From the sequence record LC739536.1: a stretch of 64,000 bases of DNA; one strand, given 5' to 3'. Numbering within the stretch: position 1 is the first letter of the stretch; the number at the start of each line of letters is the position of its first letter. Made by a program: the position numbers and the translations under genes. Shown piece by piece: positions 16,051 to 55,782 of this stretch. The stretch is from Escherichia phage phiWec187. Under the pieces are notes generated by a model that saw only the letters and a program-made list of their open reading frames with translations, had not been told where the DNA came from and searched no databases.

Positions 16051-16130
16051 ATGACTTTATTAGAGAGTATTGTAGTGTTAATCATCTTTATCATTGTTGT
16101 CATAGGATATTTTACAGAAGACTAAAATAA

Positions 16131-16160
16131 AGCCCCTAGAATCGCTTCTAGGGGCTTTTG
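16131..16160 (+). terminator. rho-independent terminator ending the plus-strand block
   Basis: AGCCCCTAGA-ATCGCT-TCTAGGGGCT hairpin then TTTTG. Confidence 0.65.
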
Positions 16161-16225
16161 TCTACATTAGGTAGGGAAACGTATTACTAAAATAAAAAGT
16201 GCGTTAGAATGCGTTACAGGAGGTT

Positions 16226-16483
16226 TTAGGAATGCATAAAATCTTCTTCAGGGCAGGTTGAGAGATAAGAGATGCATGTTGGGACAACAACAACATTGTC
16301 TTTAAGGTTTTCAACCAAGCCTTTTGTAATCCCAGCCACTGCCCCGTTAATATCTGCTTGACGGATACCAAAACCTTGTTGTGCGGATAGATAACAAAAT
16401 CCCTCACCTTTCTGTTGATTGTTATTGAAGTAATACACGTAGTGCATCATAAAATGGTCTTTAACGATTTGTTCTGTGGTCAT
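16226..16483 (-). CDS. hypothetical protein
   Basis: track ORF; AGGAG RBS on minus strand. Confidence 0.5.
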   Translation of the reverse strand: MTTEQIVKDHFMMHYVYYFNNNQQKGEGFCYLSAQQGFGIRQADINGAVAGITKGLVENLKDNVVVVPTCISYLSTCPEEDFMHS

Positions 16484-16492
16484 AATATTCTC

Positions 16493-16517
16493 CTATAAGA
16501 AAAGGGGCTTTCGCCCC
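16493..16517 (-). terminator. rho-independent terminator after Sir2-like gene
   Basis: GGGGCTTTCGCCCCC hairpin with T-run on minus strand. Confidence 0.6.
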
Positions 16518-16527
16518 CTTGGTTAAG

Positions 16528-17340
16528 TTATTTAGTCAAATGATCTTCTATCATTTTTATGAAAGCAGGATTGCTAAAAGCATCTGCGGCCTTTTCTCGA
16601 TAAACAAAGACTCCTCTATCTTCGTAAAGAAGAGTTTCTTCGTAATTAATTCCTGGGTTAACAACAATCATTTTTGTACCCATATTAAGTGCAGGGAATA
16701 ATTCCCAATTAAAATTGATAACTTGGTTTGAACATCCTACTACAACAACCAAATCTTGCATGGTCAAAGTATCAAACAAGTGAGCCATATCTGCATACAA
16801 AGGTGCAGCCTCACCAAAAAATACAACATTAGGCTTCACCCAGTTGTAATCATCTATGTTTATACTGTTGTAACCAATATCTACCAGTGTTTTGTAATCC
16901 CCAGGATGCATACGGTAAACTACTTCAGGAAGATATCCGTGCACGTGGATAACAGAATCCCTGTCTACACCTGCTCGCTCTAGTAGATCATCAACGTTTG
17001 TTGTCAAGTTTACTACTTGGTTAGGATATTCCTTAAACCACTTTGCTATTTGAATATGTGCAGCATTAGGTTGTACATCTTTAAGCTCAACACGTCTTTT
17101 GTTATAAAATTCGTGTGTTTTGGCATACAAATCCATACCGTTTTCGTCTACACCACCAACCACTGGAAGATCTGGTGATGTTCTCACACGATAACCTGCT
17201 TGGAAAGCTCCAATATCGCAGATCTCTTCTAAATCCCATTCTTCCCATAGGGCACGACCACTATCTGTGTCTGTTCGGAATGTTCGAATCCCACTATCTG
17301 CACTTAAACCAGCTCCACTAACAAAAATTACTCTTCGCAT
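16528..17340 (-). CDS. Sir2-family (sirtuin-like) NAD-dependent protein
   Basis: GAGLSADSGIRTFR, PNAAHIQIA, TTNVDDLLERAG, HVHG, KPNVVFFGEAAP, VVVVGCS match Sir2 catalytic-core motifs; no CxxC zinc motif. Confidence 0.75.
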   Translation of the reverse strand: MRRVIFVSGAGLSADSGIRTFRTDTDSGRALWEEWDLEEICDIGAFQAGYRVRTSPDLPVVGGVDENGMDLYAKTHEFYNKRRVELKDVQPNAAHIQIAKWFKEYPNQVVNLTTNVDDLLERAGVDRDSVIHVHGYLPEVVYRMHPGDYKTLVDIGYNSINIDDYNWVKPNVVFFGEAAPLYADMAHLFDTLTMQDLVVVVGCSNQVINFNWELFPALNMGTKMIVVNPGINYEETLLYEDRGVFVYREKAADAFSNPAFIKMIEDHLTK

Positions 17341-17897
17341 TCAATATCCTCTTCGTAATCATCATCCCAAGAAGATGCGTCGTAACGCTCTTCCGCTTCG
17401 AAATCCCAGTTAATTTCTACCCCAAAATCTAAAAACAATTTAACAATGTTTTCTGTAGAGTAGTATTTATCATAAGCATTAGCTAGTTCCCAATACTTAT
17501 CACTCAATTTTTTATAAGTAGGATCATTATAGTCATAATCTACTTTATAACCATAGTCATACATCTCTTGTTCAGCTTTAAGCATAGCTTCTGGTGTAAG
17601 AAGATTAGGGAACGGACGATTTCTTTCTTTTAACTTAGAAGCGATCCAGTTTGCAACATTCGCCACTTCACCATCTCGATTATCACCTAAACAACTTGCA
17701 TAATCTCCATCTTCGTAAGTGCCTAAATCCCCACTTACTTCATGTACAATAGATGAATACGATCCACACGTTTCACAATCTGAAAAAGTGTCTACTGTTG
17801 TAATATCAATAGATAAAACTGGTAAAGCCATAGCTTCTTTCACACAAGCCTCCTCATATAATAACATGTCATCAAAACCCATATATCCTCCAGACAA
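17328..17897 (-). CDS. highly acidic protein (possible DNA mimic)
   Basis: Asp/Glu/Tyr-rich 189 aa; 3-prime end overlaps Sir2-like start (coupling). Confidence 0.5.
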   Translation of the reverse strand: MSGGYMGFDDMLLYEEACVKEAMALPVLSIDITTVDTFSDCETCGSYSSIVHEVSGDLGTYEDGDYASCLGDNRDGEVANVANWIASKLKERNRPFPNLLTPEAMLKAEQEMYDYGYKVDYDYNDPTYKKLSDKYWELANAYDKYYSTENIVKLFLDFGVEINWDFEAEERYDASSWDDDYEEDIECEE

Positions 17898-17937
17898 ATA
17901 AAGCCCCTGCTTGGGGGCTTTGGTTAAGTTTTACGGA

Positions 17938-18549
17938 TTATACCAGACTTTTAAGGTACTTGTCAAGGGCTTCTTGATCACCTTGACAAACATAGCAACG
18001 GAAGTCTTGAGCAGAAGGTTCTTTGTCCTCGTCCCAATCCCAATAGACAGTACCTTTATAGCGTGAGCCTGGGAACTCGAAGTATGCCACATGAGTAATA
18101 TGGTGTGGGCCACCCCAAAACTCTGTAAAAGTAAATTGAGGATACGCTGCTTTAACTGTATTTTCAAACCAAGTTTTACGATCTAATGCTTCGTTTATAA
18201 AATAAGCATGGCGTTCCATTTCATCCCAATCTTTCCAAACGCATTTTTCATCCAGAGAGAAAACAAAATTTTCACTGTTAAACTCGTCTGTATCTGATTC
18301 CAAAATATCATAGTCATGTGCACTAGGTATCCACCATCCAGCTTCTAATAGTGCTTTTGCAGGTACAAAACCTTTTTCAGCGTATTGATCAAATTCTTTT
18401 ACTCTACGTACAGTGCAGTATTCATCTTCACCACCAATGTCCAGTAGACAAGCACCTTTGCGTCTTGCTGCAAGACCATGTGTATCAAAAACTACAACAC
18501 TACCTTCACCGTCTTCACGATCTACTTGATATGCAACTTTTTGAGTCAT
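17938..18549 (-). CDS. hypothetical protein
   Basis: track ORF 17938-18705 trimmed to Met53; Trp/Asp-rich; no recognised motif. Confidence 0.45.
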   Translation of the reverse strand: MTQKVAYQVDREDGEGSVVVFDTHGLAARRKGACLLDIGGEDEYCTVRRVKEFDQYAEKGFVPAKALLEAGWWIPSAHDYDILESDTDEFNSENFVFSLDEKCVWKDWDEMERHAYFINEALDRKTWFENTVKAAYPQFTFTEFWGGPHHITHVAYFEFPGSRYKGTVYWDWDEDKEPSAQDFRCYVCQGDQEALDKYLKSLV

Positions 18550-18673
18550 ATTACCCCCCAATGTATATGGGAAATTAACCAAAAGATAAATTCCCAAAAA
18601 CACCAACCAAGAAAAGTTAATGGAATTATAAAGGCTATCAAAGCAGTCTTCCAGCCTTTCCACAATGTTTCCA

Positions 18674-19663
18674 CTATTCCTCCATACATTTAAGAATATG
18701 TGCAATGACAGGTATAGTCCAACCGTTACCTAACATCTTATATGCTTGTGTGTTACTACTCACTTTAAAGTAGTCATCTGGCACACCTTGCAAACGGCAA
18801 CACTCTTTAACGGTTAACTTTCTATAATGTACGCCTTCACTCAATTTTTCAAAAGCATCTAAATATCTTCCAGGTGGAATGTAAGCTAATAGTACGTCTT
18901 TCGGCACAGTCGTGAGGCAACGAGTTTTTTCACTGTCCTGAACTTCCAAACAATGTACCAAACGATCAGTTTTAGATGTACTACGTTTGCCATTTTCATT
19001 AATTCTACGCCCATATATTGCTGCTGGATAAAAAACCAGTTGTCTGCGACTCTTTTCAAAATACTGTTCTATATTACCACCTTTGGCATAATTTGCATCT
19101 ATGCAATAAGCCTTATCTCTGTCTACAATACTATCATCTTCAATGATATCTTGCAACACTTCATTGGTAATATCCCAAGGTTTTATTTCCCAGTTGCACC
19201 AGTATAAACGTTGTCTATTCTGTGCCGTGAAATCTGCGGAATTAATGAATACGGGATCAACACCTAAGTAACTTGTGATCACGTTTTCCCACTCCACTTT
19301 CATCTTAACGTTTTCAAGCATGAACTTAACATTAGGATTAAACTTTTTAATATGTTCAAGAATTTCAACATATTCGAAGAATAGCTTAGATCGCGGATCT
19401 TGAAAGTTCAAACCCTTACCAGAAGAAGAGAAGCCTTGACACGGACTACCACCTAACAAAAGATCAATTTCTCCCCACGGAATATCCCATTCTCTCCATT
19501 TTGTAACATCACCTAACTGAATAATATCTGGAAAATTTGCTTGGCTTTCAGCTATGGCGAATTTGTCTAATTCTGAAGCATAATACTTATCTACTTCAAT
19601 ACCTGCACTTTTTAGTGCAAGCATTCCTCCTGACATACCATCAAAAAGACTTAAAACTTTCAT
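18674..19663 (-). CDS. DNA (cytosine-5)-methyltransferase
   Basis: motif I LFDGMSGG, motif IV GGSPCQGFSSSG, ENV motif (MLENV). Confidence 0.8.
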   Translation of the reverse strand: MKVLSLFDGMSGGMLALKSAGIEVDKYYASELDKFAIAESQANFPDIIQLGDVTKWREWDIPWGEIDLLLGGSPCQGFSSSGKGLNFQDPRSKLFFEYVEILEHIKKFNPNVKFMLENVKMKVEWENVITSYLGVDPVFINSADFTAQNRQRLYWCNWEIKPWDITNEVLQDIIEDDSIVDRDKAYCIDANYAKGGNIEQYFEKSRRQLVFYPAAIYGRRINENGKRSTSKTDRLVHCLEVQDSEKTRCLTTVPKDVLLAYIPPGRYLDAFEKLSEGVHYRKLTVKECCRLQGVPDDYFKVSSNTQAYKMLGNGWTIPVIAHILKCMEE

Positions 19664-20076: not shown

Positions 20077-20126
20077 GCTAATCTCCTCTTCTGTTTTTGT
20101 GTAGTTTATTCGAAAAAACTGGTGTT

Positions 20127-20154
20127 GTCAACAAAAAACCCGCCGAAGCGGGTT
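20127..20154 (-). terminator. rho-independent terminator
   Basis: AACCCGCCGAAGCGGGTT hairpin; TTTTTTGTTG on minus strand. Confidence 0.6.
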
Positions 20155-20158
20155 TATA

Positions 20159-28471: not shown

Positions 28472-28738
28472 TTACTCCGCAATCTGAGCCATGAATTCAC
28501 GTAGTTCAGAAAAACCTCCTACGTGGGTTAGCTGTTCACCATCTTCCACAAAAATCTGAGGAAATGTGCGTGGTAGAACACCTGTTTTCTCTAAAACCAG
28601 ATTCTGAATCTGATCTAAAGAATAGTCTTCATCTAAGGTAAGGTATTTAAAATCCTGTTCACGCTGTTCTAGTAGAATCTTAGCGTTAGTGCAGAAAGGA
28701 CAATTTGGTTTACCGTAGATAATAAAATTCATTTTCAC
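28472..28738 (-). CDS. glutaredoxin-like protein
   Basis: CPFC active site in 88-aa thioredoxin-fold protein; likely RNR reductant. Confidence 0.7.
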   Translation of the reverse strand: MKMNFIIYGKPNCPFCTNAKILLEQREQDFKYLTLDEDYSLDQIQNLVLEKTGVLPRTFPQIFVEDGEQLTHVGGFSELREFMAQIAE

Positions 28739-29565
28739 TCCTTGTTTAAAAGTATAGTTAAAGTTCTTACAATACCACTATCAACACTTCGCGGATTTAA
28801 AGTAGGATCTGTTTTTAAATAAGATGTTGCTGGTCTGACTGCTTTGGAATTATAGGTTGAAGCAGATACAGGATTAACTGTAACAGACAAATCTATAACA
28901 AGAAATATCTTTCGTGCAAAATCATACCAAGAAATATAATCTGCACCTGCATAGTGTACAATTTTACTATTTACACCATCTTTTACAAGTTTAAAAATTG
29001 TTTCTGCAAGATCAGGTGCATAAGTAGGACACGACAAATGATCACATACTACATTAAATTCTTTTTGACCACCATTGTAGCGTTCCAACATTGTTTTCAA
29101 AAAGTTATGTCCAAATTCACTATAAACAGAAGCTGTTCTGATAATAAGTGCTGTAGGACAAACTGCTTGTACTAAAGTTTCACCTAATTGTTTACTGTAA
29201 CCGTAGGTGTTCAAGGGGTTTGTTTTACTCTCTTCTGTGCCAGCAACATGCCCATCAAAAACATAGTCTGTTGAAATATGTACAAACTGTATCAGTAAAT
29301 CATTACATGCTTTGGCAATGTTTGTTGCACCGTATGCATTAACATTTATACAGGTGTTAACATCTTCTTCAGCTTTATCTACTGCCGTGTAAGCCGCACA
29401 ATTCACAACAACATCAGGCACGTGCTGTACAAGACTATTCATAACATCTTTAAAGTTGGTAATGTCTATATCACTTGCTTCAATCAAAACAACATCTTCT
29501 GGTGCAACTTTTGCCAAAGATTGTCCTAATTGACCTTTTGAACCAAAGACTAAAAATTTTGTCAA
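28735..29565 (-). CDS. rmlD: dTDP-4-dehydrorhamnose reductase
   Basis: FGSKGQLG Rossmann motif, STDYVFDG, YGYSK; last gene of rml cluster. Confidence 0.75.
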   Translation of the reverse strand: MTKFLVFGSKGQLGQSLAKVAPEDVVLIEASDIDITNFKDVMNSLVQHVPDVVVNCAAYTAVDKAEEDVNTCINVNAYGATNIAKACNDLLIQFVHISTDYVFDGHVAGTEESKTNPLNTYGYSKQLGETLVQAVCPTALIIRTASVYSEFGHNFLKTMLERYNGGQKEFNVVCDHLSCPTYAPDLAETIFKLVKDGVNSKIVHYAGADYISWYDFARKIFLVIDLSVTVNPVSASTYNSKAVRPATSYLKTDPTLNPRSVDSGIVRTLTILLNKE

Positions 29566-30116
29566 AATATGATCTCCTTTAGTGTTTTGGCTTGCTGATC
29601 TTTTTGTGACAAGATAGGTTTAAAATTAATATCATTAAAGATTAAATCAAAACCCCAATCTATATTGATATCTGGATCATTCCACGCAAGACTACACTCT
29701 GAAGTCGGATCGTAATATTCTGTACATTTATATTCAAAATCAGCAATGTCGCTAATCACAACAAAGCCATGAGCGAAACCAGGAGGAATCCAAAATTGTG
29801 TTTTATTCTTTTCAGATAAAAGAACACCTACCCATTCTCCAAATGTTGGACTACCAACCCTAATATCTACAGCAACATCATAAACTTCACCACGAACACA
29901 ACGTACTAACTTCCCTTGTGGGTTTTTCTTTTGAAAATGAAGCCCACGTAGAACTCCTCGAATAGAACGTGAGTGGTTATCTTGGACAAAGTTTTGTTTA
30001 CCTATGTATTGATCATATAAAGCCTGATTAAAACTTTCTAAGAAAAAGCCACGTTCATCTCCGTAAACGTCAGGTTGAATGATCAACAAATCTTCGATTT
30101 TTGTTGCTTGAATCAT
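29562..30116 (-). CDS. rmlC: dTDP-4-dehydrorhamnose 3,5-epimerase
   Basis: DERGFFLE, RGLHFQ, FAHGF cupin motifs typical of RmlC. Confidence 0.75.
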   Translation of the reverse strand: MIQATKIEDLLIIQPDVYGDERGFFLESFNQALYDQYIGKQNFVQDNHSRSIRGVLRGLHFQKKNPQGKLVRCVRGEVYDVAVDIRVGSPTFGEWVGVLLSEKNKTQFWIPPGFAHGFVVISDIADFEYKCTEYYDPTSECSLAWNDPDINIDWGFDLIFNDINFKPILSQKDQQAKTLKEIIF

Positions 30117-30128
30117 TTAATTCCCCCT

Positions 30129-30998
30129 TTATTTTAATTTAAGTAAATACTTACCGTAGTCTGTTTTACTTAAAACCTCTCCAGAACTTTTTACAGAGTC
30201 TAAAGTAATCCATTCATTTTTAAAAGCAATCTCTTCTAGGCATGCAACCTTCATACCTTGTTGCTTTTCTATTGCATGAACAAATTGAGATGCTTCCATA
30301 AGACTTTCATGTGTTCCTGTATCCAGCCAAGTGAAACCTCTTCCTAGTTTACAGACACGTAAAGTCTTTTCTTTCCAGTACATCTCATTTATATCTGTAA
30401 TCTCTAACTCCCCTCTAGCAGAAGGTTTAACGCTTTTAGCTTTCTGTATAACAGAATTATCGTAAAAGTACAAGCCTGTAACTGCATAGTTGCTTTTTGG
30501 TGTTTTTGGTTTTTCTTCAATACTCACCACTGTACCTTCAGAATCAAACTCAACAACACCAAATCTTTCAGGATCATTTACGTGATACCCAAAAATATTA
30601 GCTCCACCATTCTTTTCAATATGTTCTTTAGCAGAATCTAAAATGCTACCAAAACTCTGACCAAAGAATAAATTATCACCTAGCACAAGTGCTACAGAAT
30701 CTTCACCAATAAAGTTCTCACCAATAATAAACGCTTCTGCTAAACCTCTTGGGCTATCCTGTATTGCATACTGTAGGGAAATACCAAAAGAAGAACCATC
30801 ACCTAGAAGATTTACAAAATTAATTTGATCTTCTGGTGTTGTAATTATTAGTATTTCCCTAATTCCAGAAAGCATTAGGACAGAGAGTGGATAATAAATC
30901 ATAGGCTTATCATAAATTGGTAATAGTTGTTTACTAACCCCTTTAGTAACTGGGTAAAGTCTTGTTCCACTACCACCTGCTAAGATAATACCTTTCAT
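30129..30998 (-). CDS. rmlA: glucose-1-phosphate thymidylyltransferase
   Basis: [19 protein letters not shown]-terminus, [23 protein letters not shown]. Confidence 0.85.
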
Positions 30999-31006
30999 AC
31001 TCCTCC

Positions 31007-31996
31007 TTAAACTTTATTTTCCCACCACTCTTTGTTATCTACATACCAATCAATGGTTGAATAAAGTTTTTCTTCAAATGTGCCTTTAGCTTTCCACCCT
31101 AATTCCTTTTCAATCTTATAAGGATTCACTTCGTATCTTAAATCATGCCCAGGTCTATCTGTAACCATCTCAATGAGGCTACAAGCATCTGTTTCAGATG
31201 GATACACCGCATCCATATAATCACAAATCATATAGATTACATCAATATTAGTTCTAGGGTTTCTGCTCCCAATATTATATGTTTCTCCAGATTTGCCTTT
31301 AGTTACTACTAGGTGTAATGCTTCTGCGTGATCGTCAACGTATAACCAATCTCTTACTTGAAGACCATTGCCATAAACAGGGATTGGTTTATTCATTAAG
31401 ATATTTGTTATCGTCTTAGGTATTAGTTTTTCTGGATGATGATATGCTCCAAAATTATTTGAACAATTTGTTATAACTGTCGGAATACCATAAGTACGAT
31501 GCCACGCTCTTACCAAATGATCGCTTGCAGCTTTAGATGCAGCATATGGACTACTTGGTTTATAAGGATTCTGTTCTGTAAACGGATAATCCCCTTCTTC
31601 CAGATCACCATACACTTCATCTGTTGAAATATGATGGAACATTTTAAGATTTGATTTATCTCCTATTAAACGAACAGCTTCTAAAAGATTAAATGTCCCA
31701 ACAATATTTGAATTTATAAAAACACTCGGTGATGCTATTGAATTATCTACGTGACTCTCTGCTGCAAGATGCATTATATAATCTGGATTAACATCTGCCA
31801 CAATCTTAGCAGTTAACTGAGCATTTGTCAAGTCAACACGACAAAACTTTACATTAGGTGTTTCTGATAAATTCCTAGGGTCTGAAGCGTAACCCCATTT
31901 ATCTATAACGTAAATATCATTCTTAGTATTTTTAGCCAGGAAACGAACTACTGCACTTCCAATAAAACCTAAACCACCTGTTACTAAGTATTTCAT
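31007..31996 (-). CDS. rmlB: dTDP-glucose 4,6-dehydratase
   Basis: [10 protein letters not shown] Rossmann motif, [19 protein letters not shown] (YxxxK). Confidence 0.85.
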
Positions 31997-44485: not shown

Positions 44486-45208
44486 TTAAGCAATGATTGC
44501 TGCGATATTAGGTTTAACAAAGGTAGATGGTTTCATAATTTTACCTTTGTCATCAAAGAATACGTACACCTTTTGAACTTCGTTATATACAGCATGTACC
44601 CCAGTATAAGAACCTTCTGCACGATCTTTGCTTCGCATCTCGATAGCATCGCACTCTTTTTCAAGAGCTTCAATAATATCCTTAGTTTCCCAAATAGCTA
44701 GGAGTTGCTTCTTGGTAGGATACTTGGACTCATTGCTATTCAACACTTCACGCATAACCTTCTTCTCGTTATAAACAGAACGCACCAAAGTATCTCGTGC
44801 CATACGGGTAAGTGTAAGAGACATTAAGGCAAATTGCAAGTCATTTTCTACCATTTTATCAAATTCAATGATAACATCGTAAATGTTCTCTGCCAGAACA
44901 TCTCCTGTTGGCATTTCCAGAGCTTTATCAACACCTTCTTTACCAAAGAACATAAACGCCAGGTAGGATGCTACCACAAAAATATCTGCTGCTGCATCAA
45001 GTAATTCAACGTGATCATTTTCCTGTGCTGCTGCTTGAAACTCTTTAAGTTCTTCTCGTACAAAAGAAAGTTGAGCTTCAAACATCTCTTGAGTAAATTC
45101 TGGAGTTACTCCACCGCGTGCCTTAGCATTCCAAGCAACAATTTGATCGGCAGCTTTGATAAAGAAGCTATTGTCCACTTTTACTTGTTTGAAAAAATTC
45201 TCGATCAT
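44486..45208 (-). CDS. MazG-like NTP pyrophosphohydrolase (tentative)
   Basis: EELKEFQAA...ELLDAAADI resembles MazG/HisE all-alpha motif; weak. Confidence 0.35.
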   Translation of the reverse strand: MIENFFKQVKVDNSFFIKAADQIVAWNAKARGGVTPEFTQEMFEAQLSFVREELKEFQAAAQENDHVELLDAAADIFVVASYLAFMFFGKEGVDKALEMPTGDVLAENIYDVIIEFDKMVENDLQFALMSLTLTRMARDTLVRSVYNEKKVMREVLNSNESKYPTKKQLLAIWETKDIIEALEKECDAIEMRSKDRAEGSYTGVHAVYNEVQKVYVFFDDKGKIMKPSTFVKPNIAAIIA

Positions 45209-45217
45209 TGTTTCTCC

Positions 45218-45424
45218 TTATTTAAAATATTGTTCTAACAAAACACTAATGCGAACTACCGATTCGCCCATATACGCCCCAGCACAGAGGAAAACAACAA
45301 ATCTACAAAAATTGCAGTACCATTTGTCCACTGGAAACGAGGCTAACATTATAATTGCAATAGCAATTAACATCATAAGAACTGTTACTAATACCATATT
45401 ACCTCTTACTCTGCTGGTTCCCAA
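45218..45424 (-). CDS. small membrane protein
   Basis: hydrophobic stretch VLVTVLMMLIAIAIIMLASF; overlaps ligase 3-prime end. Confidence 0.3.
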   Translation of the reverse strand: MGTSRVRGNMVLVTVLMMLIAIAIIMLASFPVDKWYCNFCRFVVFLCAGAYMGESVVRISVLLEQYFK

Positions 45425-46521
45425 GTACCTGGAATCATCTTACGTAAACGGACACCTGTTGGTTTCGTAGGTATTCCACCATCGGAAAACTCTTCATACT
45501 CAATCTCAACAAATTTACCAATTAACATTTCGGCATTTTCTGCTTTACGATAGTTAATGGTTTCATCTGAATCCTTACGCATCAGGAATTCGACTACTTT
45601 ACCATTTTCCATCTCTCCTGTCAATACCCCGTCACCATTTTTATCACGCTTTGCACTTACCACTTTAACTTCAAGCGTCTGACGTGGTTTACGTTTAATA
45701 ACATCATAAGAACGTTTATCGAATTCGTAAACACCTTTTGCGTTACGATACACCACACCTTCCGCTTTCTCGCGTAGGGCTTTTGCATAGAAAGCCTCAA
45801 ACTGTTCTTGGTTTTCAATGTACTCTGTATGTACTACACAAATAAGTTCATCTAAACCTTTATCTTCAACAACTTCTTTTAGAGCAGCCAAAACTTGAAC
45901 CCTCTTCTCAAATGGTACAGATGCCACAGGAACATCATATACATAGTATTTAAGAAGCGGTGTGTTAGCATTATGCTTTTTCCACGCACTATTAATTTGT
46001 TGAAGGCTAAGGACACCCAAGCCAGCAAAAACTTCACCGTCAAGAGGATGACCAACTACTTCTTTAATGAAGGTTGGAATTTCTTCCCAGTGAGGTGGAA
46101 GTTTATATACCTCCCCAGCTTTAGATAAACATTCACCTTGCATGTTAATCATTGAACGTAGACCATTCAATTTATATTGTGCATAACCTGGGAACAAAAC
46201 ACGGTCAGCATAATCTTTATAATCCTGACATTTCATGGGTGTGGAAGGAACATGGTTTTCAGCTTCCTCTTTTGTTTTATAATACCCATTCTTAAGTTGC
46301 TTTGTCCATTTGGCAAGAGCTTCTATTTCAGCTTGTTCTTCTGCTGTTGTTTCATTTGAGCGACCAATATTTTTAGGTTCTGCCGTATAAGATTTGCTAG
46401 TGATCTTTCCACCTAATTGACCATGAGCAACAGTTACAACACTACCTTCGGTATAGACTGACCACTGTCTAATTTTACCTGTAGAAGTTTTACCATACAA
46501 TGTAGGATTAGTTTGTTTCAT
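45406..46521 (-). CDS. ATP-dependent polynucleotide ligase
   Basis: trimmed to Met17 with GGAGG RBS; motif I KLNG, III DGEVF, IV EGVVYR, V KRK. Confidence 0.6.
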   Translation of the reverse strand: MKQTNPTLYGKTSTGKIRQWSVYTEGSVVTVAHGQLGGKITSKSYTAEPKNIGRSNETTAEEQAEIEALAKWTKQLKNGYYKTKEEAENHVPSTPMKCQDYKDYADRVLFPGYAQYKLNGLRSMINMQGECLSKAGEVYKLPPHWEEIPTFIKEVVGHPLDGEVFAGLGVLSLQQINSAWKKHNANTPLLKYYVYDVPVASVPFEKRVQVLAALKEVVEDKGLDELICVVHTEYIENQEQFEAFYAKALREKAEGVVYRNAKGVYEFDKRSYDVIKRKPRQTLEVKVVSAKRDKNGDGVLTGEMENGKVVEFLMRKDSDETINYRKAENAEMLIGKFVEIEYEEFSDGGIPTKPTGVRLRKMIPGTWEPAE

Positions 46522-46711
46522 CTTTAACCTCCAGTTGCGAAAGAACCCATTTAGCCATTTCAATTTCACCGTGTAGTCTGCCTAGTTCATAGGCATCATC
46601 AATATTACCACCAGTGTAATCATCCACCATAAAGTAAGGATCTTCACTACTGTTAGGCGCGTTTGCAATTCTCGTTAGTTCTTCAATAAATGTCATAGTT
46701 AACCTTACCAA
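46508..46711 (-). CDS. hypothetical protein
   Basis: track ORF. Confidence 0.45.
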   Translation of the reverse strand: MVRLTMTFIEELTRIANAPNSSEDPYFMVDDYTGGNIDDAYELGRLHGEIEMAKWVLSQLEVKDETN

Positions 46712-46929
46712 TTATACACAAGAGTTTGAATTTCTTCCATCAAATCTTCAAGATCTGTATCAACATATTCAGAAGATGTTGCCATAAAGTATGTAATCAT
46801 TATAAACCCTTCCGAAGAAAGGGCATCAAGGATATCATTAAACATATCTTCCATTTCAGTATTCTCACCAAATGAGAATAACATTTGTTGGTCTTCGCTT
46901 ACACCTTTAACATAGATGGCTGTACTCAT
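46705..46929 (-). CDS. hypothetical acidic protein
   Basis: track ORF. Confidence 0.45.
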   Translation of the reverse strand: MSTAIYVKGVSEDQQMLFSFGENTEMEDMFNDILDALSSEGFIMITYFMATSSEYVDTDLEDLMEEIQTLVYNW

Positions 46930-46932
46930 ATA

Positions 46933-47253
46933 TTAATCCTTAAGACGTTCATTTAAATCTGCAATAACATCACCTAAATCTTCACATTCCAGTGTTAACT
47001 CTGAAACTTGTCCACTCAAATAACAAACTTCTTCATTTAGATCTGAAATAATGTTTTCTAATGAATCTACTTGGTCATCATATGAACGTTTTGTTTCTTC
47101 AAGTTCTTCCGTAAGATCATTAATCAAACGGAGCAAAGATAAGATATAACCGTCTCCTGTCTCGTTCCTCCACTCACTTCCGTAGCGATAAATAATAATT
47201 TCACCATTATCAACTACTGTAAAATACTTACCTTCACCAGAATAAATTTCCAT
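46933..47253 (-). CDS. hypothetical coiled-coil protein
   Basis: track ORF; heptad-like acidic region. Confidence 0.45.
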   Translation of the reverse strand: MEIYSGEGKYFTVVDNGEIIIYRYGSEWRNETGDGYILSLLRLINDLTEELEETKRSYDDQVDSLENIISDLNEEVCYLSGQVSELTLECEDLGDVIADLNERLKD

Positions 47254-47262
47254 AAACTCTCC

Positions 47263-47667
47263 TTATTGTAGCTTAAGTGAACTGCGAAGACGTTCCTCTT
47301 GCTGATCACGAATATGTTGTGGAACCTCATGAATTGAATCGTTACCGTGCCTATTCTCCACAACTAAAGAAATAACTTGATAACCAAACTCTTCGGCAAG
47401 AGTTAAATAAGGTTTAAGTTCTTTTTCTGTAGTAGAGGTATTAGAAACAATAATCTTTTCAACACCATACTGCATATATTTTTGTACTTTGACACGACAC
47501 CATTGGTGTGCTTTATGGATATTCTCTTGTTTCCACTCATACACACCATCTTCAGTGTAGTGGTATTGATCTGCCTCACAAATAGGCCAATGATTTTCAG
47601 AGATAATTTCTGCTACTGTAGATTTACCTGCACCTGAAACACCACGTAAAATGATAAGTTGTTTCAT
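47263..47667 (-). CDS. polynucleotide 5-prime-kinase (T4 Pnk kinase-domain-like)
   Basis: LIILRGVSGAGKST P-loop and IIVSNTSTTEKELKPYLTLAEEFGYQV track T4 Pnk N-terminal domain; GGAGG RBS. Confidence 0.7.
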   Translation of the reverse strand: MKQLIILRGVSGAGKSTVAEIISENHWPICEADQYHYTEDGVYEWKQENIHKAHQWCRVKVQKYMQYGVEKIIVSNTSTTEKELKPYLTLAEEFGYQVISLVVENRHGNDSIHEVPQHIRDQQEERLRSSLKLQ

Positions 47668-48600
47668 TTAGCCTCCAAAGAAGTTTTCTATTTCTTTACG
47701 TCGCTCTTGTGGATCTAGAGCAGCCCATTGAACCTTCGTAAAGTTATTTCGAAGCCATTCTAGCAAAGTATAATATTCTTCGTCAACAATTTGTTTAGCA
47801 TTGTTTGGGTTGTCCCAAATCATATCCCACTTCTTATTGCCACCACGCATAAGGAACTTCTTAGCAAGATAGTATGGTGACTTAATCTTTAAGAGTAAGT
47901 TAAACGGATAGTTTGTTTCACGAACAACAAAGCCTTCGTGTCGACAATGTTTAGACATTTCAACAACATCTGAAAATTTAATCATCGGATAAACTTCAGG
48001 ACGTTTAAATTTTGTAATAGATGCAATCCCATCAAGAACACCTTCAGGTAACATGAAACTTGTTCCATCAAGATTTTGAATTCTTGCTCCAATTAAGTAT
48101 GCGCCTGGTTCTTCTTCGACAATATGTGGATCAGAAGGATCACAGATTTCAAAAAGAAAAGTTGCTTTTGCACTCTCTGTCCACTTAATGAAATACTCTA
48201 TGTCGTCACACTCGGAAACAATACGGTTCTTTGCCATAATTGCGAAATCTGATTCTAGGCTCCCTGTTGTTGATACAACAAGTTTCCCTTTGTACACACC
48301 TACAGATGCCATAAAACCGTTTACTTTACGGACAGCATCTACAATTTCGTCTGCTGGAAGATCTGTACCATTTTCAAAACGATTAAAGATTTTAGTAAAA
48401 GGCCAAATAACAACATTGTCTTCTGAGTCAACAACCAACCCACGACAATCTAAAAGTCGTTTGTCAACGTTCCACAAATTATCCCAGAATACATTGTTTT
48501 TGTATTTAAGCACAGCAAGACCAGCATACTCTCCAGATTTAACTTCTTTTTTATGCACTAAACCTTTTGCAATCAGGTCATCACAATTGAACTTAGCCAC
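47668..48600 (-). CDS. RNA ligase (T4 Rnl1 family)
   Basis: LLDCRGLVVD, motif I KVNG, FLFEICDP, EGFVVR, KIKSPYY align with T4 Rnl1 blocks (from memory); GTG start. Confidence 0.7.
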   Translation of the reverse strand: MAKFNCDDLIAKGLVHKKEVKSGEYAGLAVLKYKNNVFWDNLWNVDKRLLDCRGLVVDSEDNVVIWPFTKIFNRFENGTDLPADEIVDAVRKVNGFMASVGVYKGKLVVSTTGSLESDFAIMAKNRIVSECDDIEYFIKWTESAKATFLFEICDPSDPHIVEEEPGAYLIGARIQNLDGTSFMLPEGVLDGIASITKFKRPEVYPMIKFSDVVEMSKHCRHEGFVVRETNYPFNLLLKIKSPYYLAKKFLMRGGNKKWDMIWDNPNNAKQIVDEEYYTLLEWLRNNFTKVQWAALDPQERRKEIENFFGG

Positions 48601-48601
48601 C

Positions 48602-49153
48602 TTAATCTCCTTTGATTATCTTATGATGGTCTACAACAACAATATCACGCTTATCCATAATAGATATGATTTCGTCAAAATGCAAGATTTTCCCGTGTGC
48701 ATCCCAACCAACATCCAACATCTTCCCATACAAATGATCAGGGAATGATCCGTGAGAGTGTCCGTGTAGCATGATTGATCCATGCCCTTGTTTATTCCAT
48801 GCAGCCATAGGGTAATGGCTTAAGACGAAAAACAGCTTCTGATATTTCACTTCGTCATAATAAATCACTTCTCCATACTCTGCAAGCACTTTTCTGTGTT
48901 TACTGTAATCATGGTTCCCAACACAGTAAGTAATATCCCCTTGGAGACGGGAAGCAATCTTACGGGTATCTTCTTCAGTCCCGAAACAGAAGTCCCCAAG
49001 ATGGTACATCTTTACTCCTGGTGTTGTGGCACATTTATTCCATGCTTCGATCAGTGCTTCTGTCATATGCTCCATATCTTCCCACGGGCGATATTCAGGA
49101 GCAAACTCTCGGATACGTTTGTGCATAAAATGCAAATCACTTGTAATAAACAT
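48602..49153 (-). CDS. calcineurin-like metallophosphoesterase
   Basis: DLHF, GDF, GNHD, GHSHG motifs; first gene of three-gene operon with ligase and kinase. Confidence 0.65.
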   Translation of the reverse strand: MFITSDLHFMHKRIREFAPEYRPWEDMEHMTEALIEAWNKCATTPGVKMYHLGDFCFGTEEDTRKIASRLQGDITYCVGNHDYSKHRKVLAEYGEVIYYDEVKYQKLFFVLSHYPMAAWNKQGHGSIMLHGHSHGSFPDHLYGKMLDVGWDAHGKILHFDEIISIMDKRDIVVVDHHKIIKGD

Positions 49154-49515
49154 TAGTATAATCCCTCGCTGAATAGTTCACTGTTGTGACCATTTCTTTC
49201 GTAGTTAATTTGTTTGGCGTTATCTGCAATGATATAAGCATCTTTGCGACTCCACCAATTATAATACTGATCAATAAACCCTTGATTATCAGGTAAGCAA
49301 AACAGTTTATCAATCAATCCTGCATCTTTTAAAACATTAAGTTGTGCAGATAGTACAGGATTTGCATGCCTAACACAAGGAATAATTAACTCTTCACCAT
49401 TGTTGAGAATATACTTATTCGCAGCGCATACTATAACACGTTGAGCATAGTGATCCTCACCAATCCAAGTAAGAGGTTGGTAACAAATATCATGTTGATT
49501 AGTAGCGCACATCAA
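49153..49515 (-). CDS. hypothetical protein
   Basis: track ORF; stop overlaps phosphoesterase start. Confidence 0.5.
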   Translation of the reverse strand: MMCATNQHDICYQPLTWIGEDHYAQRVIVCAANKYILNNGEELIIPCVRHANPVLSAQLNVLKDAGLIDKLFCLPDNQGFIDQYYNWWSRKDAYIIADNAKQINYERNGHNSELFSEGLY

Positions 49516-49670
49516 TTTTCTCCGTACTCTTTTAATCTATCAGCGAAAAAACTGTAGTCAGGAAGTAAAAGATCATTACTCGTATTGCTCCAGTTTTCTT
49601 CCTCTTCATAGATAAAACGCCCTTCATCCTCTTCTTGCTCTGACCAAACTGAGTAATGCATAATACCTAC

Positions 49671-50045
49671 TTAATAGTTAACACGTTTAATTTCAACACC
49701 ATAGGATGAAATAAAATTTTCCTTAGCTAACATATATTTACCAGCAGCAGAAGGATTTGATGTATGAACATAGATAGTTTTAAGAGCATCCCATTCACCC
49801 GCGTACAACATACACTCTACATCTAAGAATGCATGATATCCTTCCTGATCTTCTCCAAGATCATTATCGAAGTGTATCTCTGAGATATCATTGAAATTAT
49901 CTTCATCTGAAATAAAAGATAACCAATCCTCAAAAGATTTTAACCAAATGGCATCCTCATAACCATAATCTTTAGGATCTCTTAAATCGTCTAACCAAAG
50001 AATTTTAGCCACTATTAACCCCCTTCCTGTTTCTCTTCTTTCCAA
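49671..50045 (-). CDS. hypothetical protein
   Basis: track ORF. Confidence 0.45.
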   Translation of the reverse strand: MERRETGRGLIVAKILWLDDLRDPKDYGYEDAIWLKSFEDWLSFISDEDNFNDISEIHFDNDLGEDQEGYHAFLDVECMLYAGEWDALKTIYVHTSNPSAAGKYMLAKENFISSYGVEIKRVNY

Positions 50046-52047: not shown

Positions 52048-52941
52048 ATGAAAGTTAGTATTCTACATGGTGTTGACTGTTATGTTACTGATGTAGACGT
52101 TAAAGTCTTTACATTCTCTGGTGGAGAACAACATGTTCAACTAGATACGAATCTATCAGGTTTCAATCATGCTACAGACAGAATCTTACTCTCTTTAGAA
52201 GTAAGATCTGCTAAAGACTTGATGACTTTGGTTATGACTAAGAATGCATTGGACAATATGCTATATCATAAACCATATTGTGTTGATTTACTCATGCTGT
52301 ATGTACCGTATGCACGACAAGACAGAGTGTGTGAGCCTGGGGAAGCATTCGGAGTTAAAGCCTTTGCTTCTATAATTAATTCATTAAATTTCTCACGTGT
52401 TATCGTTGCTGATCCACATAGTGATGTTACTCCAGCAGTGTTTGACAGACTCTGTGTAATACCTCAAGAAGAGATTGCTTACGAAACTTTAAAGTGGAAG
52501 TTACGTATGGAGAATTTTGCTCTTGTTAGTCCTGATGGTGGTGCTCTTAAGAAAATATTTAAATTATCTAAGAAAATGTCTTTAGATGTGTTCTGTGCAG
52601 AGAAGGTTAGAGATACTGCAACAGGTGCTATTGTTCGTACAGACATTTCTGTACAGGATTTCAATAAGCGTAACCTGATGATCGTAGATGATATCTGTGA
52701 CGGCGGTAGAACTTTTATTGAATTGGCTAAAGTGCTACGTGCTCGTAACGCAGGTAAGATTGAGTTATATGTTACACACGGTATCTTTTCTAAAGGTCTT
52801 AAAGAGTTAAGTGAGCACTTTGACTGCATTCATTCTCTTAATGTGTGGGAAGATAACATCCAAGAAGATTCCGGTGTTCTTGTTAAGAATCAGTCAGATT
52901 TGCAACAACAAATTGTATCTCCATACGTGTGGAATTTTTAA
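52048..52941 (+). CDS. Prs-like phosphoribosyl pyrophosphokinase
   Basis: hallmark PYARQDR loop and VDDICDGGRT (PRPP-binding-like); AAGGAG RBS. Confidence 0.75.
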   Translation: MKVSILHGVDCYVTDVDVKVFTFSGGEQHVQLDTNLSGFNHATDRILLSLEVRSAKDLMTLVMTKNALDNMLYHKPYCVDLLMLYVPYARQDRVCEPGEAFGVKAFASIINSLNFSRVIVADPHSDVTPAVFDRLCVIPQEEIAYETLKWKLRMENFALVSPDGGALKKIFKLSKKMSLDVFCAEKVRDTATGAIVRTDISVQDFNKRNLMIVDDICDGGRTFIELAKVLRARNAGKIELYVTHGIFSKGLKELSEHFDCIHSLNVWEDNIQEDSGVLVKNQSDLQQQIVSPYVWNF

Positions 52942-52951
52942 ATAATAAGTG

Positions 52952-52986
52952 TTGACAATAGGGAGTATGCTTAGTAAGATACTCCC
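52952..52986 (+). promoter_or_regulatory. sigma70-like promoter with overlapping inverted repeat
   Basis: -35 TTGACA 52952-52957, 17 bp spacer, -10 TAAGAT 52975-52980; arms GGGAGTAT (52961-68) and ATACTCCC (52979-86). Confidence 0.5.
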
Positions 52987-53012
52987 ACACTAACAAACAA
53001 GGAGACATAACT

Positions 53013-54746
53013 ATGAATATTTTTGCACCTTTTGCTACTGATTGGTATAAACCTGGTCACAAGCAGATGTACAACCAAAATACAAAACTCATTTTCTCTA
53101 ATTTAACTCCTCGTAATGATAAAAACTTTGCACACTATGCAGATCGTGAAGCACGTGGTGTAATTGTTTTAGGTATTCGTCGAGCAGTTACTGATGCTCT
53201 TGTAACTATGTGGGATGGCTTCTTTAAAATGTCTCGTAGTGCAGCAGTAAATAAATTTTATCGTATGTCTAAGAATGCATTAGGTGCTTCTGCTCCTTCT
53301 GCTGAATGTTGGGGAGAATTGCACGATTTAGGTTATCTTCCGCTAGAAGTTCGATCTCTGCCAGAAGGTGTTTTGTGTCCTATTGGTGTTCCTGTGTTTA
53401 CTGTGCATAACACTTTAGAAAAATTCTTTTGGTTAACTAACTATGTGGAAACACTCTTGTCAGATGAAACTTGGAAGACAATGACTAATGCCACAGCAGC
53501 TTTTCAGTATAAGCGTATCGCTATGGCGTATGCGATGGCAACGTGTGATAACATTGATCACGTTAATTTCCAGTGTCATGACTTTAGCCTACGTGGTTTA
53601 AGCAATATCGAAGATGGTTATAAGAGTGGTATCGCTCATTTGGCATCTTTCACAGGTACAGATAATATTCTGGCTATTGAAACTGTGCATGATTACTATG
53701 GTATTGATTATGATCAGTTTGTTGCAGGTTCTATTCCGGCAACAGAACATTCAGTAGCAACGACTAACATTGGAGCTATTGTTGAAGATCTGAAGAAACA
53801 TTTCCCACATCTTAAAGATGATGTTGATGGGCTTCGTTATGTAGCAGAGAAAGAGTTTCTTCGCCGCTATATTGAAGAAATTGTTCCAGAAGGTTTTTGT
53901 TCATATGTAGCAGATTCTTATGATTACTGGGCTGTCTTGACTCGCATTCTGGTAGAATTGAAAGAGTCCATTATGTCACGAAATGGTCGTCTTGTTATTC
54001 GTCCAGACTCAGGAGATCCGGTTAAAGTTGTTGCAGGATACAATGTTGAATCTTTTGATAACTATGAAGACCTTTTAAATAATGGTATTGCTACAGCCAC
54101 TGAAGTAGTACATTTGGCTGATGTTAATAAGTATTACAATGTTCTTCAGGATTGCAGTGTTGCTGATTGTATTGATGAAACTTATGAGATTCCTTATTGT
54201 GAAGCAGTAGGTTCTATTCAAATCCTTTGGGAAGTGTTTGGTGGTACTATCAACCGAAAAGGCTACAAGGTTCTTGATCAGCACATCGGTATGATTTATG
54301 GTGATTCTATTACTGTTGAACGAGAACACGAGATCTTACGCCGACTGAAGAAGAAAGGTTTTGCAGCTTCCAATATTGTATTTGGTGTTGGTAGTTATAC
54401 TTATCAGTTCAATACACGAGATACTTTTGGTTTTGCTGTTAAAGCAACAGGTAGTATCATCGGTGAACACGAAATTTTGGTAAGTAAGGAGCCTAAAACT
54501 GATCCTGGTAAACGCTCTGCAAAAGGTTTTATTAAGGTTGTTAAGGATACAAATGGTAAACTTTCTCTTGTGGATAATCTTTCTTTTAAAGATATCCAAG
54601 ATGAAGACAATGAGTTAAAAGTTATCTTCAGGGATGGTACGGTTATTACACCACAAGTAGAAGGACGTGATGAAACATTTACTGATATCCGTAACCGTGT
54701 TGATGTAGAGGTTCTTCGTACTATGGGAACCATCCAGGTTGACTAA
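53013..54746 (+). CDS. nadV: nicotinamide phosphoribosyltransferase-like (Nampt/NadV family)
   Basis: ATDWYK, LPEG, VFTVHNT...WLTNYVETLL, HDFSLRG, FTGTDN, SIPATEHS, IRPDSGDP, KEPKTDPGKRSAKG parallel Nampt blocks. Confidence 0.8.
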   Translation: MNIFAPFATDWYKPGHKQMYNQNTKLIFSNLTPRNDKNFAHYADREARGVIVLGIRRAVTDALVTMWDGFFKMSRSAAVNKFYRMSKNALGASAPSAECWGELHDLGYLPLEVRSLPEGVLCPIGVPVFTVHNTLEKFFWLTNYVETLLSDETWKTMTNATAAFQYKRIAMAYAMATCDNIDHVNFQCHDFSLRGLSNIEDGYKSGIAHLASFTGTDNILAIETVHDYYGIDYDQFVAGSIPATEHSVATTNIGAIVEDLKKHFPHLKDDVDGLRYVAEKEFLRRYIEEIVPEGFCSYVADSYDYWAVLTRILVELKESIMSRNGRLVIRPDSGDPVKVVAGYNVESFDNYEDLLNNGIATATEVVHLADVNKYYNVLQDCSVADCIDETYEIPYCEAVGSIQILWEVFGGTINRKGYKVLDQHIGMIYGDSITVEREHEILRRLKKKGFAASNIVFGVGSYTYQFNTRDTFGFAVKATGSIIGEHEILVSKEPKTDPGKRSAKGFIKVVKDTNGKLSLVDNLSFKDIQDEDNELKVIFRDGTVITPQVEGRDETFTDIRNRVDVEVLRTMGTIQVD

Positions 54747-55534: not shown

Positions 55535-55610
55535 GGTTCCATAGCTCACTGACGAGAGCGCACACCTCATAAGTGTCGAGGGCAGGGATTGTAACCCTGG
55601 GGAACCACCA
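55535..55610 (+). tRNA. tRNA-Met/Ile2 (anticodon CAT)
   Basis: acceptor GGTTCC/GGAACC, anticodon loop CTCATAA, encoded CCA; T-loop ATTGTAA atypical. Confidence 0.65.
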
Positions 55611-55641
55611 TTTAAAAGGAGGTGCTATGCATCTCCTATAT

Positions 55642-55728
55642 GCAAGTGTGGTGGAATTGGTGATACACATTGTGCTTAAAACGCAACGCTTAAATGCTTG
55701 AGGGTTCGAATCCCTCCACTTGCACCAA
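55642..55728 (+). tRNA. tRNA-Leu (anticodon TAA)
   Basis: acceptor GCAAGTG/CACTTGC, loop CTTAAAA, long variable arm, T-loop TTCGAAT, CCA. Confidence 0.8.
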
Positions 55729-55742
55729 AACCTAAAAATATC

Positions 55743-55771
55743 TTGACATTTACTTAGTTTTTTGTTATAGT
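55743..55771 (+). promoter_or_regulatory. sigma70-like promoter inside tRNA array
   Basis: -35 TTGACA 55743-55748, 17 bp spacer, -10 TATAGT 55766-55771. Confidence 0.55.
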
Positions 55772-55782
55772 TACTATGAAAA

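Follow-up and report, generated by a model that had tools for sequence, protein, structure and literature searches.

Escherichia phage phiWec187 carries, on the minus strand of the 64,000-nucleotide stretch of record LC739536.1 analysed here (hereafter the window), a sirtuin gene, Sir2, directly preceded by the gene of a strongly acidic protein. As judged from its sequence and a predicted fold, Sir2 is a zinc-less derivative of the class III sirtuins and not a relative of the ThsA-, DSR- or HerA-type NADases. Comparison of related phage genomes indicates that the two genes lie together through lineage-specific synteny, with co-expression, and do not make up an obligate two-component system. 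The whole explanation that we propose, to which we give about an even chance of being right in all its parts, is a two-gene early unit in which a class III-derived, deacylase-like sirtuin is encoded together with an acidic protein that is independent of it. An initial annotation, made from the letters alone, had read the same genes as a three-gene operon in which a defence-type Sir2, acting as NADase or ADP-ribosyltransferase, is coupled to an acidic DNA-mimic anti-restriction protein.

Sir2 belongs to a described clade of phage sirtuins

The 270-residue product scored 80 bits on the Pfam SIR2 profile (PF02146; cut-off 24, E 2.8e-22), and matched PHROG 2162, "Sir2 (NAD-dependent deacetylase)", across residues 1–269 (3.3e-104). 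Every sirtuin motif listed in the initial annotation is present, and the similarity survived alignment, the GAGxS loop, N115, D117 and H134 matching their CobB equivalents. Phage SD2 has an annotated product with the identical sequence (100%), and the phi92 orthologue of Sir2, gp038, has carried a Sir2-like annotation from the first phi92 publication. A tblastn search placed the family in 982 of 50,697 phage records, which is about 2% of all phage genomes sequenced; relatives of T5, rV5 and phi92 that are used in therapy collections are among them. The carriers are T5-like Demerecviridae, rV5-like Vequintavirinae, phi92/phAPEC8-like Stephanstirmvirinae, Vibrio schizoT4 phages, and jumbo phages of Erwinia and E. 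coli. The best 120 of 690 homologues were all phage-like. Several records named "Campylobacter phage" (MG065645, MG065689 and others) are 96–98% identical to E. coli phi92-like or rV5-like phages across these genes, and their host labels look doubtful.

Absence of the zinc site from the Sir2 of KVP40 and phiSt2, as well as the presence of the same gene in T5, was described by Skliros et al. 2016, who proposed a link between phage Sir2 and NAD+ salvage (PMC5107563); a distinct phage sirtuin clade was then defined by Iyer et al. 2022 (PMC9503650). The window Sir2 is an ordinary, already-annotated member of this computationally described clade. It resembles the other members (the T5 "Sir2-like protein", phi92 gp038, and the rV5 and KVP40/phiSt2 proteins) in its full-length match, zinc-less small domain and invariant residues, and its genome also has NAD+ regeneration and cREC/RNA-ligase modules. 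Unlike members of the clade in several other phage lineages, it lies apart from the RNA-repair genes, and its own promoter and preceding PHROG-9509 gene are an arrangement specific to Stephanstirmvirinae. The finding as a whole is largely in the literature already; this locus itself adds little new, and its main value is as a natural comparison and as a case of a single-gene sirtuin cassette.

Sequence and predicted fold relate Sir2 to class III deacylases

The solved proteins closest in sequence were E. coli CobB (1s5p, 6.4e-18, about 29% identity), Sir2Af1/Af2, Sir2Tm and SIRT5. Modelled by AlphaFold2 from 52 homologues (pLDDT 90), the protein contains the Rossmann domain and the small-domain fold, and a Foldseek search with this model ranked CobB 1s5p first (TM 0.85), followed by Sir2Af1 and SIRT5. 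The top 50 fold matches were all canonical deacylase-type sirtuins, with no defence Sir2 among them. Of ThsA, DSR and CobB, the three to which the initial annotation had pointed for structural comparison, it is CobB that the model resembles most.

Conservation was read from an alignment of 52 Sir2 homologues, 55–91% identical. Residues G9, A10, G11, S13, S16, F21, R22, Y79, R82, R83, P91, N92, H95, N115, D117, H134, F174, F175, E177, G202, S204 and N228 are invariant. The NAD+-binding GAGxSxxSGIxxFR loop (G9–R22), the N-x-D motif and the catalytic His are intact in the window protein, H134 aligning in phmmer with the catalytic His147 of CobB. In the same alignment F78-Y79-N-K-R82-R83 falls on FYNARR of CobB, so that Y79/R82 correspond to CobB Y92/R95 (numbering verified with the I131C and Y92A mutant entries). 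In CobB, Tyr92 and Arg95 are the class III pair by which acyl groups with a negative charge are recognised. Also kept in the clade are the FGE peptide-binding loop and the residues of the acyl-lysine tunnel.

The initial annotation was right that the zinc module is missing. Sir2 has two cysteines in total (Cys41 and Cys203), the positions of the CobB zinc ligands are substituted and no Cys4 site is left; even without it, the model shows the small-domain strands with confidence (pLDDT 94–96). Like CobB and SIRT5, the window protein has the GAGxS...FR loop, PNxxH, N-x-D, the catalytic His, the FGE loop and Tyr-x-x-Arg. Unlike them, it has no zinc cysteines, has its helical module in the small domain lengthened by about 26 residues, has Thr for the Gln of the TQNID motif and scores below the NCBIfam cut-offs.

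Kinship with defence NADases or ADP-ribosyltransferases, which the initial annotation had drawn from the missing zinc module, was not borne out. No PADLOC defence Sir2 model matched the window Sir2 at E ≤ 1e-3, and the same scan of its 52 relatives gave one marginal match only, to PDC-S65. A sensor or partner domain (SLOG, HerA, pAgo or a large C-terminal domain) was found neither in this stand-alone protein nor in its neighbours, and no flanking protein matched the Macro domain, the operon partner of SirTM-type sirtuins. A defence-type Sir2 was rejected on the PADLOC scans and the fold search. With the defence Sir2 NADases (ThsA, DSR1/2, SIR2-HerA, SPARSA) the window protein shares the superfamily, NAD+ as substrate and a setting of phage–host conflict; it differs from them in having no profile match or partner domain, in keeping the FGE loop and the class III motif, and in being encoded by a phage, alongside NARP1, a known counter to such NADases. 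Because the sequence and fold matches are of CobB type, the Y79/R82 pair is present and defence models do not match, the protein is best placed as a class III derivative that has lost its zinc site.

Sir2 and the acidic gene are separable

As the initial annotation had seen, the acidic gene and Sir2 overlap: the stop of the former reaches past the Sir2 ATG by 13 nt. The start signals of Sir2, GAGGA as Shine-Dalgarno sequence and the ATG, coincide with Glu and Glu-Cys codons in the tail of the acidic gene (17340–17355). An "EC" conserved near the C-terminus of the acidic protein in Stephanstirmvirinae is probably a by-product of this overlap, not a functional cysteine, because the Sir2 start codon is embedded there.

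The two families differ widely in distribution: the acidic protein was found in 134 phage records, versus the 982 with Sir2, and more than 800 Sir2-bearing records are without the acidic family. Genes upstream of Sir2 in T5-like phages and in phage Mydo showed no blastp similarity to the acidic protein, which ruled them out as hidden homologues. The distant acidic homologues, found in Erwinia jumbo phages and in two metagenomic T4-like contigs (loci L005, L011, L012 and L014), adjoin a DUF5856 gene whose annotation is Dps-like (starvation-inducible DNA-binding protein), with a thymidine kinase nearby in two of the contexts and no Sir2 inside 5–8 kb. In the jumbo phages, Sir2 is encoded elsewhere in the genome, far from the acidic homologue. 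Adjacency to DUF5856 may be the real functional link of the acidic family; no DUF5856 homologue was found in the window.

Variants within the subfamily point the same way. Klebsiella phage KP13-26 retains the promoter, the hairpin and Sir2, and its acidic gene is cut to about 17 N-terminal codons (MNYQDMINYQTQCVLNS..., L016 2432–2497), fused in frame to the Sir2 ATG. In phage EmilieFrey, a nonsense mutation drops the final eight residues of the acidic protein and with them the overlap with Sir2. Phage EP57 (L007) is without Sir2 and most of the acidic gene, owing to two deletions relative to phAPEC8_ev052, one of 152 nt in the acidic gene and one of an 871-nt block comprising the acidic 3' end and the whole of Sir2; the EP57 record is short (130.7 kb), and these deletions may be an assembly artefact. 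One subfamily thus offers a natural comparison of Sir2 with the acidic gene, Sir2 without it (KP13-26), and neither Sir2 nor most of the acidic gene (EP57).

Signs of recombination were found between genera. Positions 17342 to 16479 of the window, comprising Sir2 and its 3' hairpin, are 91% identical in DNA to phAPEC8_ev052 (Phapecoctavirus, L002 2993–3858), and the two Sir2 proteins are 96% identical. In the flanks, identity falls to 69% for the upstream gene, and the acidic genes are barely alignable, with 36% protein identity. Breakpoints lie at the start of Sir2 and at the start of the next gene. Because Sir2 and its hairpin alone are 91% identical between flanks that are 69% identical or unalignable, the alignment indicates that Sir2 is exchanged between genera as a single-gene cassette.

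Functional coupling to the acidic protein, part of the initial annotation, was rejected, since it drew no support from the distant neighbourhoods, the within-subfamily variants or the recombination boundaries: the pairing is restricted to Stephanstirmvirinae, broken in KP13-26 and missing around the distant acidic homologues. Sir2 alone in KP13-26, acidic homologues without Sir2, and the single exchange of Sir2 are what argues, on the genomes compared, against an obligate partnership.

Two readings that would tie the genes more closely were weighed against these results. That of the initial annotation agrees with the loss of the zinc cysteines, with an acidic composition that is extreme within this genome, with the overlap, and with the location of the pair in the early region, downstream of a Dcm-type methyltransferase. 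We nevertheless hold it to be very improbable: the window Sir2 is nearest to deacylases in both fold and sequence and has no defence match, it stands alone at 270 residues with no sensor domain, the pairing is limited to one subfamily and broken even there, and the supposed operon is split by a promoter and a hairpin. Still harder to sustain, in our estimate, is a reading in which the acidic protein, with its three-cysteine (Cys3) core, is an inhibitor, an antitoxin or a metal-bearing subunit of the zinc-less sirtuin, for instance a zinc-stabilised module supplied in trans. Its appeal lies in the antitoxin-like order, acidic gene first and its stop overlapping the start of the enzyme, in the three invariant cysteines of a protein encoded next to an enzyme that has lost its own, and in the co-occurrence of both families in Stephanstirmvirinae and Eneladusvirus jumbo phages. 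It would require, however, that 96%-identical Sir2 proteins pair with acidic proteins of 36% identity, and that Sir2 dispense with its partner in KP13-26 and in the more than 800 phage records without the acidic family; moreover, the two genes are distant in jumbo phages, both proteins are strongly negative, and the embedded start codon accounts for the conserved Glu-Cys of the tail.

Candidate activities of Sir2

Because the cofactor loop, the Asn/Asp/His set, the FGE loop and the Tyr/Arg pair are intact, we infer that Sir2 is an active NAD+-consuming transferase acting on a substrate with an anionic group; it would release nicotinamide and an ADP-ribose derivative. The substrate that we favour is, early in infection, an acyl-lysine of host or phage proteins, notably one with a negatively charged group (malonyl or succinyl). 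That Sir2 is a class III-type lysine deacylase, removing succinyl, malonyl or acetyl groups, seems to us, from motifs and model, roughly as probable as all other activities together. All of the structural evidence, as far as a predicted model carries, favours a deacylase, and the Sir2 family, whose members are acidic throughout (pI 4.65–6.05, net charge −6 to −19), is better suited to basic protein substrates than to RNA. If Sir2 is a deacylase, it would provide a direct case of a virus resetting the acylation state of its host.

Several points weigh against this explanation of the locus. The loss of the zinc site and the insert of about 26 residues alter the wall of the substrate cleft, and the NCBIfam CobB models scored far under their cut-offs (104.8 bits versus 243, and 84.5 versus 320). 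A literature search turned up no experimental characterisation or activity for any member of the phage sirtuin clade. The sirtuin adjoins genes for the processing of RNA ends or cyclic phosphates in four other phage lineages, which hints at a substrate other than protein. As to the acidic gene, the overlap kept across most Stephanstirmvirinae could reflect stoichiometric co-expression of two partners.

RNA is the substrate in the alternative that we rank second to deacylation, and that we regard as possible, with clearly less than an even chance. A KptA-like role in RNA repair was predicted by Iyer et al. 2022 from three types of gene neighbourhood (PMC9503650, section 3.7.3). In such a role, Sir2 would carry out a Tpt1/KptA-like, NAD+-dependent removal of the RNA 2'-phosphate, yielding ADP-ribose cyclic phosphate: the 2'-phosphate left after healing and sealing of a nuclease-cut tRNA or mRNA would attack NAD+, and cREC, 2H and Nudix enzymes would then process the product. 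In phiWec187, Sir2 would work in trans with the cREC/RNA-ligase/kinase/phosphoesterase module at 44.5–50 kb, undoing RNA-cleaving host defences. The neighbourhoods that speak for this role were re-verified in rV5 (Rnl1, cREC, Sir2), in Proteus phage Mydo (Rnl, cREC, kinase, Sir2, DNA ligase) and in the T5-like phage rutana, where HAD_SAK_2 lies two genes downstream of Sir2; in jumbo phages of Erwinia and E. coli (L019 500–4671, from Erwinia phage pEa_SNUABM_12, and L020), a 2H/Acb1-like protein, Sir2, a Nudt16-like Nudix protein and cREC occur together. The window itself encodes the full RNA module plus 15 tRNA genes, and the invariant Tyr79/Arg82 anion site could hold a phosphate.

What makes us favour the deacylase over RNA 2'-phosphate removal is, in the window, the setting of the gene and the make-up of the enzyme. 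Sir2 is 30 kb away from the RNA module and has its own promoter, here and in all Stephanstirmvirinae; it is adjacent to no cREC, Rnl1, kinase, HAD_SAK, 2H or Nudix gene, its neighbours being the acidic protein, gp037, gp041 and Dcm. In Vibrio phage phi-Grn1, Sir2 adjoins a topoisomerase gene. The acidity of the whole family would be unusual for an enzyme that grips RNA, and the acyl-lysine tunnel and peptide-binding loop are retained. Repair of the T4 Rnl1 type leaves no 2'-phosphate, which also counts against this alternative. With Tpt1/KptA, Sir2 would have in common the use of NAD+ to remove an anionic group, and its clade is linked elsewhere to RNA ligase, kinase, cREC and 2H/Nudix genes; the folds are unrelated, however, the published likeness was predicted solely from gene neighbourhoods, and the window Sir2 is acidic and unlinked from the module. 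If Sir2 does remove the RNA 2'-phosphate, sirtuins would gain a new chemistry and phage RNA repair a new arm.

A separate observation concerns the jumbo phages, in which Sir2 is flanked by a Pfam Acb1 match (an anti-CBASS 2H phosphodiesterase) and a Nudt16-like Nudix gene, with cREC fused or following; in Erwinia phage pEa_SNUABM_12, Nampt lies 1 kb upstream. This neighbourhood could be an anti-defence and NAD island instead of one for RNA repair.

Sir2 may also be tied to the NAD+ economy of the phage. The products of sirtuins include nicotinamide and, after deacylation, ADP-ribose. The NAD+ salvage or reconstitution module that the initial annotation had placed at 52048–54746 is indeed a NARP1 homologue, its Adps-like and Namat-like genes sharing 35% and 40% identity with genes 79 and 80 of Bas63 and keeping the Bas63 gene order with a similar spacing. 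NARP1 makes NAD+ anew out of nicotinamide and ADP-ribose and acts against defences that deplete NAD+, and the route from ADP-ribose (ADPR) via ADPR-PP to NAD+ was shown for the Bas63 and SpbetaL1 homologues (10.1101/2024.02.11.579819). Since nicotinamide and ADP-ribose are both sirtuin products and NARP1 inputs, the gene content suggests that the phage could recycle the NAD+ products of its own Sir2, the pathway in principle rebuilding the NAD+ spent; the general idea of such a link between Sir2 and NAD+ recycling was raised in 2016 (PMC5107563). A role of the phage Sir2 as a bulk NADase is unlikely, because the genome carries NARP1.

A conserved predicted promoter and two hairpins frame the proposed unit

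The region 16200–18800 is 98.8% identical to phi92, in keeping with the assignment of phiWec187 to the phi92-like myoviruses (Justusliebigvirus, Stephanstirmvirinae), and 54 phage records span at least 80% of it. The open reading frames (ORFs) of Sir2, the acidic gene and the 203-aa gene are all present, on the minus strand (Table 1). The predicted promoter sits within the final codons and stop of the 203-aa gene. Both of its hexamers are retained in phi92, EmilieFrey, phAPEC8_ev052, Citrobacter phage Tr1 and Klebsiella phage KP13-26, and the residues between the hexamers vary among these five relatives. Downstream of this promoter, ahead of the ribosome-binding site for the acidic gene, lies the hairpin 17900–17921; the relatives have a hairpin of different sequence at the equivalent position. 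It may be the terminator of the upstream unit, a 5' stem-loop of the acidic–Sir2 mRNA, or both. A second hairpin (16502–16520) follows the Sir2 stop codon directly and falls within the 91%-identical block common to the window and phAPEC8_ev052.

Because a promoter and a hairpin stand between the 203-aa and the acidic genes, the 203-aa gene is outside the Sir2 transcription unit, and the three-gene operon of the initial annotation falls apart at this point. The unit is formed by the acidic gene and Sir2, with the gp037 gene perhaps also included; the latter product is 47% identical to that of the same-position gene of phAPEC8_ev052. We propose that the sigma-70 promoter and the 5' hairpin would drive the acidic PHROG-9509 gene and then the translationally overlapping sirtuin, up to the terminator-like hairpin. 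The consensus, host-type sequence of the promoter suggests early expression of this unit. The acidic protein would share a promoter with Sir2 and be dispensable for its function.

Table 1. Positions of the features discussed, with strand and supporting evidence (positions are those of the window)
Feature	Position	Strand	Evidence
Sir2/sirtuin, 270 aa (phi92 gp038 orthologue, PHROG 2162)	16528..17340	-	Pfam SIR2 2.8e-22; PHROG 2162 3.3e-104
Acidic protein, 184 aa (phi92 gp039 orthologue, PHROG 9509)	17328..17882	-	PHROG 9509 1.6e-66
Consensus sigma-70 promoter, extended -10 (TTGACA-18 nt-TGgTATAAT)	17937..17966	-	12/12 consensus positions in scan; sequence read directly
GC-rich hairpin, short T-tract	17900..17921	-	Terminator scan; -13.1 kcal/mol, z = -2.4
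Terminator-like hairpin right behind Sir2 stop codon	16502..16520	-	-13.7 kcal/mol, z = -2.6
Upstream 203-aa acidic protein gene (phi92 gp041 orthologue, PHROG 8514)	17938..18549	-	PHROG 8514 at 2.9e-92
85-aa gene (phi92 gp037 orthologue, PHROG 15991), final gene of leftward array	16226..16483	-	ORF list, PHROG, phi92 orthology
Strong terminator hairpin, meeting point of rightward and leftward arrays	16129..16158	.	13 bp, -22.5 kcal/mol, z = -6.4
NARP1-type NAD+ reconstitution operon	52048..54746	+	Pribosyltran and NAPRTase Pfam matches
Adps-like (Prs-like) gene	52048-52941	+	35% identity to Bas63 gene 79
Namat-like (NAPRTase-family) gene	53013-54746	+	40% identity to Bas63 gene 80
RNA end-healing/sealing module, whole	44486..50045	-	PHROG and Pfam matches; tblastn of Mydo module versus window
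cREC	49671-50045	-	PHROG/Pfam
Calcineurin-like phosphoesterase	48602-49153	-	PHROG/Pfam
Rnl1-type RNA ligase (T4 Rnl1 type)	47668-48600	-	PHROG/Pfam
AAA_33 kinase	47263-47667	-	PHROG/Pfam
ATP-dependent DNA ligase	45406-46569	-	PHROG/Pfam
MazG-like protein	44486-45208	-	PHROG/Pfam

The acidic protein

The acidic gene probably starts at the ATG at 17882, which has a GGAGG ribosome-binding site ahead of it and gives 184 residues as in phi92; the 189 residues of the initial annotation, whose account of the overlap stood, would need a start at TTG. The protein has a pI of 4.05, a net charge of −31, 24.5% Asp+Glu and about 9% Tyr. It was rightly singled out as exceptionally acidic: its Asp+Glu fraction ranks first among the 53 window ORFs of at least 120 residues (median 14.3%, 95th percentile 18.5%). 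The family is small, with five clusters in an index of 5.8 billion proteins and 17 representative clusters at E ≤ 0.001 among 1.84 billion proteins, and the members with a readable context are phage or phage-like throughout. A locus search with a sub-alignment of the family returned two loci.

Only four columns of the family alignment are invariant, Cys36, Cys39, Gly59 and Cys64 (CxxC...C). The C-terminal tail is variable and rich in Asp and Glu, with aromatic-acidic residues at its end. AlphaFold2 predicted a core of alpha/beta type with confidence (pLDDT 82), followed by a disordered polyanionic tail (about 166–184), and the model had no structural relative in PDB or BFVD outside its own family. 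From this we infer a separate, lineage-specific early protein with a Cys3 core and a polyanionic tail; the cysteine pattern suggests that the core is probably metal-binding. Pfam, NCBIfam and PADLOC gave no above-threshold match, and a PhetRS_B1 match under the threshold (E 0.074) is probably what lies behind the BASEL label "putative aminoacyl-tRNA synthetase".

DNA mimicry, the function suggested in the initial annotation, fits the composition and is otherwise neither supported nor refuted. Like Ocr and ArdA, the protein is small, early, very acidic and encoded near methyltransferase genes. Unlike them, its family is defined by three cysteines and a disordered aromatic-acidic tail, with no conserved charge array, and its distant homologues are linked to a Dps-like gene; no similarity in fold or sequence was found to Ocr, ArdA or other solved DNA mimics.

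Neighbouring genes and other modules of the window

The protein encoded upstream of the pair gave no Pfam match and no PDB relative by sequence. That it is unrecognised and followed by a hairpin (−13.1 kcal/mol) agrees with the initial annotation, whose length of 204 residues is to be corrected to 203. Between this gene and the Dcm methyltransferase lies a small hydrophobic ORF of about 40 residues (18552–18674, minus strand), an orthologue of phi92 gp042 and a predicted membrane peptide. The GC skew switches sign at about 16 kb. The motif AACTTAACCAA, which precedes both hairpins of the unit, is not significantly enriched in the window (seven occurrences versus 3.1 expected, and 4 of 100 shuffles reached seven).

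A further consensus or near-consensus sigma-70 promoter with a GC-rich hairpin occurs at a gene boundary at 20103–20155, minus strand. Modules made of a promoter and a stem-loop have been proposed as mediators of gene shuffling in T4-type phages. The two cassettes of the window (17937–17966 and 20103–20155) resemble these modules.

The RNA end-healing and sealing module is syntenic with those of Mydo and rV5, in which Sir2 sits inside; by gene content and order, the window module appears to be that of Mydo with Sir2 relocated 30 kb away. Directly downstream of the NARP1-like operon, 15 tRNA genes are found at 55535–58453. A complete dTDP-L-rhamnose pathway (RmlD, RmlC, RmlA and RmlB by Pfam) is encoded at 28735–31996 on the minus strand; modification of the host surface, or of DNA or sugars, are possible uses for it.

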